Source: a virus (taxonomy: Duplodnaviria > Heunggongvirae > Uroviricota > Caudoviricetes). From it: a stretch of DNA of 34,499 bases. Position 1 is the first letter of the stretch. Every line of letters starts with the position of its first letter. The position numbers were made by a program, and so were the translations under genes. Positions 301 to 28,303 of this stretch are shown in pieces. The stretch lies in the IMG/VR virus record IMGVR_UViG_648276647_000016, positions 1 through 34,499 of that record; one strand, written 5' to 3'. The notes under the pieces are model-generated. The model saw nothing but the letters and a program-made list of their open reading frames with translations, did no database searches and was not told the DNA's origin.

Positions 301-377
301 GGAATGGTCTGCGTTGTCGGGAAGATGCGTGATCTGATCCTTCAACTCAGCAAAAGTTCGATTTATTCAACAAAGCC
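1..377 (-). mobile_element. IS903-family (IS5 family) insertion sequence, partial; outer terminal inverted repeat at 359-377
   Basis: Minus strand of 359-377 reads GGCTTTGTTGAATAAATCG, which I recall as the IS903 terminal IR. Adjacent ORF translates to VAKQKFKITNWSTYNKALINRGSITFWLDDEAIQAWYESATPSSRGRPQRY, matching my memory of the IS903/IS102 transposase N-terminus. Element continues beyond the window start. Confidence 0.85.
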
Positions 378-816
378 CCTTCAAGTTTCTAATGTAGTTG
401 TTCAGCGCGTCATACCAGTCTGCGATATTCGAGGGCTTACGTAGCGCCAGCCTGAATAAACTACTTACCTGCTGTATGAGCATAGTCAGCTTATCAAACG
501 CATCCTCGTGCACCTCAGCAAAAAACTTACCCTGGTTTCTAAGATCTGTTTCCTGAGTAACCGGCAGTTCTCGCGATATGGAAATCTGATAACCATTAGC
601 CAGTGCTTTCGACAGAATTACATTGCCGCCGTTATACCCTCCCGCACCAGTGACTGTGTAATCAGTATCAAGAGCCAGCACAGTGATATTCTCGTCAGGG
701 TCAATCACCTGCACTACTAGATCAGATTTATTGAAAACCCTAAAGGTATAAGGGAATGATGTCGTAACGCCGTTACCGGTGTATTCGTTGTGGTCAACTT
801 CGGTTGAGACCGTCAT
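367..816 (-). pseudogene. Tail fibre / tailspike N-terminal virion-attachment domain, truncated by the IS903-family insertion
   Basis: 149-aa ORF starting MTVSTEVDHNEYTGNGVTTSFPYTF, resembling phage tail-fibre N-termini. Only codons 1-146 (378-816) are phage DNA; the last three codons and the TGA stop (367-369) lie inside the IS inverted repeat. Confidence 0.6.
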
Positions 817-1011: not shown

Positions 1012-1269
1012 ATGCAGCAGTATCACTATCCACTGGAAGACGGATTTACCGAAAGGATTCACACGCCGGGAGGCGTCAGGTCACTGGTGGAGGGATCGCA
1101 CTTGATGAAATTACTCCGGGATCTCGATAAGGATGGATTTAATGTCGATGGCCCACTTGCCGAACTGACTGCACTGATTAACTACGTCACCAGCTCGCAG
1201 ATGTCTATGCAGGATCTGCAAACACATCTCGACTATTGTGCCGAACAATTACTAAAACAAACCAGATAA
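1012..1269 (+). CDS. Small antirepressor-like protein (paralogue of the C-terminal domain of the Bro-N antirepressor), LexA-box controlled
   Basis: 85-aa ORF with good RBS. Aligns by eye to residues ~150-220 of the 1585-2280 product (IHTPGGVRSLVEGSHLMKLL..DGxxVxGxxAELT..QDLQTH vs IHSPSGVLGLTENSLLMNLL..DGHDVSGAAAELT..RDIQTH). Confidence 0.6.
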   Translation: MQQYHYPLEDGFTERIHTPGGVRSLVEGSHLMKLLRDLDKDGFNVDGPLAELTALINYVTSSQMSMQDLQTHLDYCAEQLLKQTR

Positions 1270-1272
1270 GGT

Positions 1273-1315
1273 TTGAAATTACCAAGTGGAGTGCTTATAT
1301 TTACCTTTGCGGTAA
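1273..1315 (+). promoter_or_regulatory. Sigma70-like promoter (TTGAAA-N17-TATATT) with operator palindrome TTACCTTTGCGGTAA (1301-1315) over the predicted start
   Basis: Read directly from sequence; operator matches the motif found in the immunity region. Confidence 0.5.
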
Positions 1316-1407
1316 ATTTACATCGCACTCCTCTTGTGCCATAGTAATCGGGCACTGGCAAAATCCAGTGCCGGGATTGGCGTCCCGGATTACTAAAAGG
1401 CGCATTC

Positions 1408-1427
1408 ACCGCGCAAGCGGTTTTTTT
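1408..1427 (+). terminator. Rho-independent terminator (ACCGC-GCAA-GCGGT + T7)
   Basis: 5-bp GC stem with GNRA loop followed by TTTTTTT, about 110 nt downstream of the promoter at 1273-1300. Confidence 0.55.
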
Positions 1428-1584
1428 ATGCGTATAGCACGGCCACATTCGTATTATGGTGGGCTGTGTGGGGGCACCGAAAGGTGCGCCGGGTCCTTTT
1501 AGCCGGTTACGCCAACCCTGCACAGTTCACCACCAACCGATTGGCGTCGGTAGTGGTGATTAACCAGACTAAAAGGTAACCACT

Positions 1585-2280
1585 ATGACAGCTACAAAAA
1601 GCACGTCCATTTTTTCTTTCGAATCCCAAGCCGATATACGAGTAATCGTCATTAATGGTGAGCCATGGTTTATCGCTTCAGATGTTTGTCGGGCTATAGG
1701 CATAGCAAACCATCGAGATGCTGTTCGAAAACTTGATGATGATGAGAAGGGCGTCGCTTCAACCGACACCCCTGGCGGTGAGCAAGAATCGATCATCATC
1801 TCCGAGTCAGGCCTCTACACACTGATCCTCCGCTGCCGCGATGCGGTGACACCAGGCACTATCCCCTACCGCTTTCGTAAATGGGTTACAGGTGAGGTTC
1901 TTCCTCAGATCCGCCGCACCGGAAGCTACATTAAAAACTCGCTCCCGCAGGAAGAACGCATAAAGATGGTTGCCGACCAGGTTGCCAACGCCACGGCGTC
2001 AGCAGTAATGCAGGCGATGAAGATAGAGAACAAAACCTACAGCGCCCCGCTGAAGCCAGGATACCGCAGTCTGATTCACTCGCCGTCTGGTGTTCTCGGC
2101 CTGACGGAGAACTCACTGCTGATGAATCTGCTGAACCAGTTACAGGACGACGGGCACGACGTATCGGGCGCGGCGGCGGAACTGACCACCATGTTCTGCT
2201 ACATTGTCGGTGTGAGCAAATGCCTGCGTGATATCCAGACGCACGCGGAGTACATCAACGACAAGGCAGGGTTCTTCTGA
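1585..2280 (+). CDS. Antirepressor, Bro-N domain family
   Basis: 231 aa; N-terminal region (EPWFIASDVCRAIGIAN ... ESGLYTLILRCR) matches my recollection of the Bro-N/antirepressor fold. RBS AAAAGG 8 bp upstream. Confidence 0.7.
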   Translation: MTATKSTSIFSFESQADIRVIVINGEPWFIASDVCRAIGIANHRDAVRKLDDDEKGVASTDTPGGEQESIIISESGLYTLILRCRDAVTPGTIPYRFRKWVTGEVLPQIRRTGSYIKNSLPQEERIKMVADQVANATASAVMQAMKIENKTYSAPLKPGYRSLIHSPSGVLGLTENSLLMNLLNQLQDDGHDVSGAAAELTTMFCYIVGVSKCLRDIQTHAEYINDKAGFF

Positions 2281-19189: not shown

Positions 19190-19266
19190 GTGGCATTAGC
19201 TCAGCTGGACAGAGCAACCGCCTTCTAAGCGGTTGGTCGCAGGTTCGAATCCTGCATGCCACGCCA
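19190..19266 (+). tRNA. tRNA-Arg (anticodon UCU)
   Basis: Hand-folded cloverleaf: acceptor GTGGCAT/ATGCCAC, D-stem GCTC/GAGC, anticodon stem ACCGC/GCGGT with loop CUUCUAA, T-arm GCAGG-TTCGAAT-CCTGC, discriminator G and encoded CCA. Confidence 0.85.
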
Positions 19267-27564: not shown

Positions 27565-27600
27565 AGCTATTGCCTGATATTTATTTCAGATAATAAATAT

Positions 27601-27663
27601 TCACCCATAAGGTAACAAAAATCAAGGATAGTTACCTATGGGGTGCATTTACCTGTTGGGTAA
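27601..27663. promoter_or_regulatory. OR-like operator cluster: TCACCCATAAGGTAA (27601-27615), TTACCTATGGGGTGC (27632-27646), TTACCTGTTGGGTAA (27649-27663)
   Basis: Three copies of the TTACC-N5-GGTAA palindrome in the 154-bp divergent intergenic region between the cro-like and repressor genes. Confidence 0.6.
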
Positions 27664-27718
27664 TATTGCTTTAAATTGAATCACCTACTGATTCATATAT
27701 GAGGCGATTTTCCAGAAA

Positions 27719-28303
27719 ATGAAAAGTATCCAGGACGTCCGCAGGCAAAATCTCAACGACTTGATCGACCGTGAATTCAATGGTGTTCAGACGCGGATGG
27801 CAGAAAAACTTGGAACTCAGGCAAATCTGGTAAACCGCTGGGCTCTTGGCAAGAAGGTTATCGGCGACCAGGTTGCTCGAAAAATTGAAGCTGCCGCCAA
27901 TAAACCCCGTAACTGGCTTGATATCGATCGCTCGCTTTCTCATGAAGGTTTTCAGCCTGTCGGCCCAAGCGACATTGGTCAGCTGGCGGCTCACAACCTG
28001 GAACGCTGGATGAGCGAAAGCCGCGACCTTTCAACGCAGGGAAAACTTCACCGCGCATCCGGCGTCGCCCAGGTGACAATCAGCCGCCTGTTAAACAATG
28101 AGGTCAGCGTTTCCATTTCCACCCTGGAGAATGTTGCATCCGCATTCGGGCGTCACGGATATGAACTACTGATTCACCCGCACGACCCTGCGACTATCAA
28201 CTATGACCGCTCGCGCTACGCATTGTTACCCGAAACCGAGAAAGCAAAGATTGAAAGTTACATTGAATTTGTCATCAACCAGAACGAAAAAAGCAAACAA
28301 TAA
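27719..28303 (+). CDS. Prophage immunity repressor, tandem HTH domains, no S24 peptidase domain
   Basis: 194 aa with two XRE-like HTH segments (QTRMAEKLGTQANLVNRW and LHRASGVAQVTISRLLN); no Ala-Gly/Ser-Lys autocleavage module; divergent from cro and followed by a terminator. Confidence 0.65.
   Translation: MKSIQDVRRQNLNDLIDREFNGVQTRMAEKLGTQANLVNRWALGKKVIGDQVARKIEAAANKPRNWLDIDRSLSHEGFQPVGPSDIGQLAAHNLERWMSESRDLSTQGKLHRASGVAQVTISRLLNNEVSVSISTLENVASAFGRHGYELLIHPHDPATINYDRSRYALLPETEKAKIESYIEFVINQNEKSKQ

Follow-up and report, generated by a model that had tools for sequence, protein, structure and literature searches.

The immI operon of phages P1 and P7 encodes c4, an antisense RNA that matures to about 77 nt through RNase P processing at a GGU motif, as quoted in PMC5320573. 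In a model traced to Citron and Schuster (1990, as cited in Weinberg, 2010), two sets of short sites, a1/b1 and a2/b2, compete for this RNA.

A second literature concerns the isrK-orf45-anrP genes of Gifsy-1 in Salmonella (Hershko-Shalev et al., 2016; PMC4825925). IsrK is an Hfq-binding RNA; Hfq binding and activation of antirepressor translation by its short form are established for Gifsy-1 only, where providing the short form in trans increased anrP translation by a factor of more than 100 (PMC4825925). A processed and stable RNA, STnc1160, derives from the sequence downstream of IsrK (PMC4825925). In the authors' account IsrK refolds the long mRNA and orf45 is translated, rather than a processed c4 being titrated, and IsrK is likened to the P4 seqA/CI system, not to P1 c4 (PMC4825925). 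A 2025 review gives IsrK and c4 as separate systems, and the authors describing the APSE phages of Hamiltonella did not connect IsrK to a1/b1 sites (PMC7313666). We found no explicit statement that IsrK is a1b1, or that orf45 is c4, in the searchable literature, which omits most subscription-journal papers.

We examined a structured region ahead of an antirepressor gene (ant) in a viral sequence from IMG/VR (IMGVR_UViG_648276647_000016). Judged by its sequence, this is a functional-looking P1-type c4 antisense-RNA immunity module with an upstream IsrK-type partner. We consider it highly probable that positions 1273-1584 lead a P1-type immI operon of a phiV10/epsilon15-like E. coli prophage, in which c4 would repress ant and an a1/b1 decoy would relieve the repression. 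Directly shown are family membership, structure, exact complementarities, their co-variation among related modules, and an arrangement syntenic with that of P1, Gifsy-1, APSE and Stx phages.

Elements of the ant leader

The window, that is the whole 34,499-nt stretch analysed, represents an E. coli prophage of the phiV10/epsilon15-like (Uetakevirus) type. The cassette adjoins the tail-fibre gene and a LexA-controlled small antirepressor gene; it lies directly 3′ of the latter, whose LexA box is at 973-992 and which has no terminator before 1408. The tail-fibre gene of this prophage carries an inserted IS, so the module may no longer matter for the phage life cycle. In phiV10 the corresponding region is annotated with a 'terminator' alone.

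A sequence-only reading of this DNA, made without database searches, had called 1270-1584 highly structured. Folding confirms this: RNA 1308-1600 reaches −120.7 kcal/mol against −92.3 ± 4.9 kcal/mol for dinucleotide shuffles (z = −5.84), and none of 200 shuffles equalled it, so the structure exceeds chance. The hairpins and terminator listed in that reading all exist, at coordinates off by 1-3 nt. It had taken the region for non-coding regulatory RNA controlling ant, and the Rfam scan of the whole window agrees. Two families match here over their full model length and well exceed their gathering scores: isrK (RF01394) at 1352-1427 on the plus strand (77.9 bits, gathering 50, model positions 1-77 of 77) and C4 (RF01695) at 1452-1537 (77.7 bits, gathering 45, model positions 1-87 of 87, no non-canonical pairs). 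Its 'candidate small RNA or attenuator' is right about a regulatory RNA and too modest about its status, the RNA belonging to a curated and experimentally characterised family; the kind of element is already known and is not new. Across 800-2400 no other Rfam family scored better than E = 3, the remainder being chance-level snoRNA and FtrA matches, and ARAGORN found no tRNA or tRNA-derived att site in the region.

Two analogies had been offered for control of ant, P1 c4 and P22 sar. The first proved to be homology, both by the C4 match and by feature-by-feature alignment with P1 immI. The second, under which an opposite-strand antisense RNA of the sar type or some other unrelated sRNA controls ant, has the precedent that ant genes of P22-like phages are so controlled; however, we found no minus-strand promoter-like site in 850-2400 and no Rfam match for it, and the plus-strand c4 module explains every structured element. 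We give the sar-type or unrelated-sRNA explanation next to no probability.

The leader begins with a promoter-like site, TTGAAA-17-TATATT (1273-1301, plus strand), which agrees with the consensus at 10 of 12 positions and overlaps an operator-like sequence as the earlier reading had proposed. This sequence is the perfect inverted repeat TTTACC-N5-GGTAAA (TTTACCtttgcGGTAAA, 1300-1316), lying between and overlapping the first site and a second, TTTACA-17-CATAGT (1317-1345, plus strand). The two are the positional equivalents of P1 P2c4 (P51a) and P1c4 (P51b), respectively: the −35 of P2c4 aligns to 1273-1279, and the −35 and −10 of P1c4 to 1317-1322 and 1340-1345. The second site was found independently by the consensus scan and by the P1 alignment, and a sequence TTGACA-17-TATATT, read by eye, stands at the matching position 5′ of Gifsy-1 isrK. 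The scan yielded two sites against a shuffle mean of 1.7, which is chance level; the promoters proposed for the window rest on the alignment with the annotated P1 promoters.

The operator motif, generalized as WTTACC-N5-GGTAAW, has 10 copies in the window where 0.15 would be expected. One lies in the gap (27565-27718) 5′ of an HTH repressor gene (27719-28303, 194 aa), and two are just 3′ of that gene, a distribution suggesting that this repressor binds the motif.

Transcription from the second promoter is predicted to start near G1352; the −10 ends 7 nt before this base, which is position 1 of the isrK model. The IsrK-type RNA (1352-1427) comprises two hairpins, a single-stranded b1 site and an intrinsic terminator. 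Hairpin 1 has 8 bp (GGCACTGG-CAAAAT-CCAGTGCC) and lies at 1351-1372, where it had been reported at about 1354-1375; the adjacent 6-bp hairpin 2 (CCGGGA-TTGGCG-TCCCGG), also listed in that reading, is located at 1371-1388. The terminator, CACCGCGCAAGCGG followed by T7 (1407-1427, plus strand), was described before from 1408 (as ACCGCGCAAGCGGT) to 1427 and is supported by sequence and consensus scan alike. It probably ends the short RNA, in which case c4 and the ant mRNA would need read-through. A short plus-strand transcript ending at this terminator had been expected, and the one predicted here matches the known IsrK sRNA. The c4-a1b1 motif (RF03163) also matches at full length (1-53) at 1339-1391 with E = 9e-10, its 45.1 bits being 1.6 under the gathering score of 46.7; the bases of this match also score above the isrK gathering threshold. 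The third stem of the motif, described in Weinberg (2010), is present (1344-1349 with 1388-1393).

The predicted mature c4 antisense RNA occupies 77 nt (1458-1534, plus strand), and the annotated 77-nt P1 C4 aligns exactly here. The minimum-energy structure reproduces its three-helix fold of closing stem P1, P2 hairpin with GAAA tetraloop, and P3 hairpin with an open loop. P1 is a 17-bp stem (1457-1473 with 1516-1532) that unites the parts into one RNA. P2 (1474-1487) is the GAAA-loop hairpin (GGCACC-GAAA-GGTGC, 1473-1487) previously placed at about 1475-1492, and P3 spans 1488-1507. The RNA starts with GGU at 1458 and has the 3′ tail ACCA at 1532-1535. These sequence hallmarks, together with P1 homology, suggest maturation to 77 nt by RNase P.

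Pairing partners of c4 and the proposed control of ant

Two single-stranded segments of c4 have exact complements on both sides of it. The P3 loop b′ (CCUUUUAG, 1495-1502, plus strand), unpaired in the minimum-energy fold, matches b1 (CUAAAAGG, 1393-1400) and b2 (CUAAAAGG, 1569-1576) over 8 nt. The junction a′ (ACGCCAA, 1509-1515) matches a1 (UUGGCGU, 1377-1383) in the loop of hairpin 2 and a2 (UUGGCGU, 1541-1547) in the loop of a small hairpin CCGA/UCGG (1537-1550) over 7 nt; all these sites are on the plus strand.

The b2 site includes the Shine-Dalgarno AAGG and stands 8 nt before the AUG of ant, and a2 is just upstream. The sequence-only reading had seen no complementarity to the ant ribosome-binding site; the exact 8 nt covering the Shine-Dalgarno, and the 7 nt upstream, overturn this. 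Besides this complementarity of the c4 loop, it had missed the long-range closing stem of c4 and the second promoter. When the flanks were shuffled with dinucleotides preserved, 1 of 5000 shuffles gave any c4 8-mer complementary in both flanks. Predicted duplexes are −14.2 kcal/mol for b′:b2, −10.3 for a′:a2, −12.0 for b′:b1 and −16.5 for a′:a1, so that the totals for decoy (−28.5) and target (−24.5) are comparable.

The gene that follows, ant (1585-2280, plus strand, AUG at 1585), encodes a 231-aa Bro-N antirepressor (Pfam Bro-N, E = 2.3e-21; PHROG 'anti-repressor Ant', E = 2.2e-62). The scan found no plus-strand terminator-like site between c4 and ant. The AUG of ant occupies the aligned position of the P1 icd AUG; the window lacks a small icd-like ORF that would follow b2 and be coupled in translation to ant, such an ORF being a feature of the P1 operon and not of the RNA family. 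One further element, X (GUGGUGA, 1553-1559, plus strand), is the complement of bases 1527-1533 in the 3′ strand of stem P1 of c4.

From these elements we infer the following scheme. Tandem sigma-70 promoters flanking the operator-like repeat would give transcripts starting near 1308 and 1352. Most would halt at the intrinsic terminator (1407-1427), yielding a short IsrK-type RNA that displays a1 in a hairpin loop together with b1. Read-through transcripts would contain c4, to be cut by RNase P between U1457 and G1458 if P1 homology is a guide. Free c4 would then pair through its P3 loop and junction with b2 and a2 in the ant leader, masking the Shine-Dalgarno and blocking translation of the Bro-N antirepressor, so that the prophage repressor would stay active, an RNA-based immunity. 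The a1/b1 sites, whether carried by the short RNA or by the 5′ segment of the read-through transcript itself, would compete for c4 and could so relieve the block. By homology, c4 is predicted to act in the window as a trans repressor of antirepressor synthesis that sets immunity specificity. Titration of c4 by the short RNA, likewise inferred, is supported by the Gifsy-1 data; the more than 100-fold activation of anrP there is consistent with a decoy role and with the model of a1/b1 and a2/b2 competing for c4.

Variation of the module among relatives

A pattern scan of viral contigs gave 120 loci with 121 usable modules and 56 different b′ loops; one module per loop was compared. The b′ loop co-varies with b1 and b2: its longest complement averaged 6.86 nt upstream and 7.93 nt downstream over the 56 loops, against 4.71 and 4.86 nt when modules were permuted, and none of 200 permutations reached the observed averages. 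The target positions of b′ are nearly fixed among these loop variants, at about −95 and +50 from the c4 core, and b2 lies 46-58 nt 3′ of the core in nearly all modules. Such a hypervariable loop (56 variants in 121 modules) fits the role of an immunity-specificity determinant. Compensatory changes were seen in 15 of the 22 predicted c4 pairs (54 sequences), and 45 of the 56 distinct modules have a terminator-like hairpin with T-run between b1 and c4. Of 43 modules, 22 have an antirepressor-type gene (Rha, Bro-N, ORF6N, P22_AR or KilA-N) as the first one after b2, and in 20 of the other 21 a short ORF comes first; about half of the surveyed modules are without a short first ORF. The window is an ordinary member of this 'no icd' variety of c4 modules. 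Among 5426 complete E. coli genomes, about 1000 match the cassette at least in part and 239 contain most of the 1.4-kb query; APEC O1 (NC_008563, 2744749-2746134) is one strain with this prophage. The cassette also stands 5′ of antirepressor genes in many Stx phages.

We also considered whether the region codes for protein, through ORF 1236-1502 (plus strand, 88 aa), ORF 1233-1523 (minus strand, 96 aa) or ORF 1456-1563, whose 35 codons begin with the AUG at the c4 5′ edge and end 21 nt short of ant. The homologous AUG of Gifsy-1 opens orf45, reported to be necessary, in translated form, for anrP expression (PMC4825925). Over 38 modules, 8 stops fall in the c4-AUG frame, compared with 21 and 36 in the other two, and in 15 of the modules the c4-AUG frame continues in frame into the downstream gene; this pattern is suggestive but confounded by conserved RNA sequence and relatedness. 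Against coding, none of the three ORFs matched Pfam and neither of the two long ones matched PHROG; the c4 helices evolve through compensatory base changes; and orf45 is reported to be conserved in nucleotide sequence but variable in amino acid sequence. RNase P cleavage, if it occurs as P1 homology suggests, would split the 5′ AUG of c4, and the 35-codon ORF of the window ends before b2, uncoupled from ant. Coding as the explanation of this region is accordingly very improbable. An open-frame test of coding was rejected as uninformative: owing to the G+C-rich RNA, 91% of modules have at least one of six frames stop-free across the isrK-c4 span.

Element X and the 3′ strand of c4 co-vary over 51 modules (6.39 observed, 4.89 permuted; none of 200 permutations reached the observed value). 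A 7-bp hairpin in the window pairs element X (1550-1556) with the bases immediately 5′ of the AUG (1578-1584) and would have formed, with c4, a chain of mutually exclusive, attenuator-like helices; it was dropped as a general feature, its mean arm in the family being 4.8 nt, about that of unrelated pairs in the other tests. The co-variation of X bears on a purely cis-acting leader or attenuator, in which ant expression depends on how the long transcript folds (by cis pairing of a1 with a′, by the terminator, and by pairing of the c4 3′ strand with X), with no processed c4 acting in trans. Such a leader would have a terminator within it, as this one does, and a downstream partner co-varying with the c4 3′ strand; in Gifsy-1, moreover, altering a1 or a′ by mutation increased the basal translation of anrP on that very molecule, and native gels resolved two conformers (PMC4825925). 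However, c4 is reported to work in trans in P1 and P7 and to set their heteroimmunity; STnc1160, the processed RNA 3′ of IsrK, is stable and abundant in Salmonella lysogens; and both c4 targets are placed in loops of a kind that favors loop-loop contacts. Action in cis and action in trans are not mutually exclusive, and we consider control by cis folding alone unlikely. We retain the trans-acting c4 with its a1/b1 decoy as the preferred reading.

A broader proposal is tentative, and we hold it somewhat more doubtful than probable: that IsrK is the a1/b1 'decoy' of the c4 system, that Gifsy-1 'orf45' (STnc1160) is c4 RNA, and that the widespread isrK-c4-ant cassette is a three-RNA switch, SOS-linked here and with element X as a cis switch. 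If so, one transcription unit would give a terminated decoy, a processed antisense RNA and a target leader, and antirepressor synthesis would depend on how often the terminator is read through and on the ratio of decoy to c4. SOS-induced read-in from the LexA-controlled upstream gene would add a1/b1 copies, since that gene lacks its own terminator, and might couple DNA damage to release of the second antirepressor. Pairing of the c4 3′ strand with X would be a further cis switch, deciding whether a read-through transcript yields c4.

For annotation, the 'hypothetical' ORFs and lone 'terminator' of phiV10-like phages should give way to an IsrK-type RNA, a c4 RNA and four target sites, and the Bro-N gene should be read as an RNA-controlled antirepressor.

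Comparison with P1, P4, APSE and Gifsy-1

The P1 comparison used the GenBank P1 record with detailed immI annotation and a four-way alignment. All annotated immI features (both promoters, a1, b1, C4, a2, b2 and the first AUG) align with matching window elements: P1 a1 to 1377-1383 and b1 to 1391-1399, on the plus strand, and a2 and b2 to positions that deviate by no more than a few bases from the window sites defined by complementarity. P1/P7 immI (c4-icd-ant1/ant2) and the window share, on one strand, the order operator with tandem promoters, a1, b1, terminator-like hairpin, 77-nt c4, a2, b2 on the ribosome-binding site, and AUG; their c4 RNAs share the three-helix fold with tetraloop on P2 and the GGU 5′ end. 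In P1/P7, however, icd intervenes, whereas b2 of the window covers the ribosome-binding site of the antirepressor itself. The P1 antirepressor is Ant1/Ant2, that of the window the 231-aa Bro-N protein. The P1 a and b sequences, TTGACAG and GTTAGTGA, differ from those of the window, and therefore the two would be heteroimmune. The P1 repressor is C1, whereas the operator motif of the window is assigned to a different one, the HTH protein that would bind it; and P1 is a plasmid prophage, while the window is an epsilon15-like integrated prophage.

The P4 CI RNA with seqA/seqC follows the same logic, an immunity RNA processed from the leader of its own operon and pairing with repeated sites on both sides (PMC4825925); it differs in belonging to another RNA family, with no Rfam match in this region of the window, and in acting by premature transcription termination. 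The APSE phages of Hamiltonella (isrK, C4 and Bro-N) have the identical gene order, annotated so in GenBank LR794149 and PMC7313666, but about 71% nucleotide identity to the window and other a′ and b′ sequences.

Gifsy-1 shares with the window a full-length isrK match and a C4 match at near-equal spacing; the latter (Rfam, 69 bits) lies between isrK and anrP, and here too the antirepressor gene comes directly after b2. The first AUG of 'orf45' (A107) is the conserved AUG at the c4 5′ edge. The Gifsy-1 frame that it opens is 45 codons long, overlapping the anrP start (AUGA), whereas the window frame, as noted, has 35 codons and stops 21 nt short of ant; with no icd either, translational coupling of the P1 or Gifsy-1 type therefore cannot work in the same way. 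The b′ loops differ (UCGGUGAU in Gifsy-1, GUCCUUUUAG in the window), as do the settings, the Q/nin region of a lambdoid phage for Gifsy-1 and the neighborhood of the tail-fibre and LexA-controlled antirepressor genes for the window. Reading the Gifsy-1 sequence against the numbering of PMC4825925, which also holds in the window counted from 1352, places G28 and G31 in a1 and C159 and C162 in a′. The compensatory mutants G28A/C162U and G31A/C159U (PMC4825925, Table 1D) fall exactly on a1 and a′ and therefore prove the a1:a′ pairing experimentally for Gifsy-1. This correspondence suggests that the P1 c4 and Salmonella IsrK literatures describe one mechanism.

A possible alternative pairing of the c4 3′ strand

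The 3′ strand of the closing stem of c4, the predicted antisense RNA, is complementary (1527-1533) to a segment that we call element X (1553-1559), placed about 33-38 nt downstream of that strand and between a2 and b2, the target sites in the ant leader. We examined the pairing in 51 related modules, that is, isrK-c4 cassettes from viral contigs, and found that its two strands co-vary, with 6.39 nt observed vs. 4.89 nt when permuted, a value reached by none of 200 permutations. The c4 fold and the pairing with element X are mutually exclusive; if the latter forms, the a2 hairpin would be the tip of the resulting structure. No mention of this pairing was found in the literature examined.

Reading frames over the isrK-c4 span

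An AUG is conserved at the 5′ edge of c4, and in the window opens a frame at 1456-1563. Among 38 related modules this frame has 8 stops, vs. 21 and 36 in the other two, and in 15 of them it is continuous and in frame with the downstream gene. Judging from the homologous P1 RNA, RNase P would cut inside this AUG. The scarcity of stops may mean that unprocessed transcripts are translated, or may be a by-product of conserved RNA sequence. More generally, a stop-free frame crosses the isrK-c4 span in 91% of modules, because the span (1233-1523 in the window, both strands) is G+C-rich and structured. Several phage records (PV189400 and PV189402 included) carry "hypothetical protein" genes annotated there; these are likely mis-annotations.

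Probable SOS control, probable operators and prophage state

A near-perfect LexA box, TACTGTATAAATATACAGTT (973-992; two mismatches to consensus, none expected by chance), precedes by 20 nt a gene (1012-1269) for an 85-aa product that matches phrog_450 and is 42% identical to the Bro-N Ant over the 75 C-terminal residues of the latter (E = 2e-15). It looks like an SOS-controlled mini-antirepressor, with a repressor-binding domain common to it and the c4-controlled Ant. No plus-strand terminator was found between this gene and the leader of c4, and transcripts made in the SOS response are therefore expected to extend into a1/b1, the upstream pairing sites.

The inverted repeat WTTACC-N5-GGTAAW occurs ten times in the window (0.15 expected), as 17-bp sites at 920, 1300, 18852, 21979, 21997, 25256, 25318, 27648, 28360 and 28422. 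Copies lie upstream of both antirepressor genes, and in the upstream gap and just downstream of the gene for a 194-aa HTH repressor (27719-28303); these are probably the operators of the prophage repressor. No peptidase S24 domain was detected in this protein; a repressor lacking a self-cleavage domain is consistent with induction via antirepressors.

The terminal part of an IS5-family insertion sequence (1 to ~385), which shares 97% identity with copies found on thousands of plasmids, adjoins a tail-fibre gene (367-816, minus strand) shortened to 149 codons; the phiV10 homologue of this gene has 2628 bp (~875 codons). It is unlikely that the prophage can produce infectious particles. A tRNA-Arg gene (anticodon TCT; 19190-19266), detected by both ARAGORN and Rfam, lies inside the prophage.

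The Gifsy-1 isrK locus

In Gifsy-1, the orf45 described at the isrK locus (L125, 34131-34316, minus strand) occupies the same stretch as a full-length match to the Rfam C4 model. The compensatory mutants reported for this locus, G28A/C162U and G31A/C159U (PMC4825925), map to a1 and to the c4 element a′. The IsrK and P1 c4 literatures appear to describe one system.
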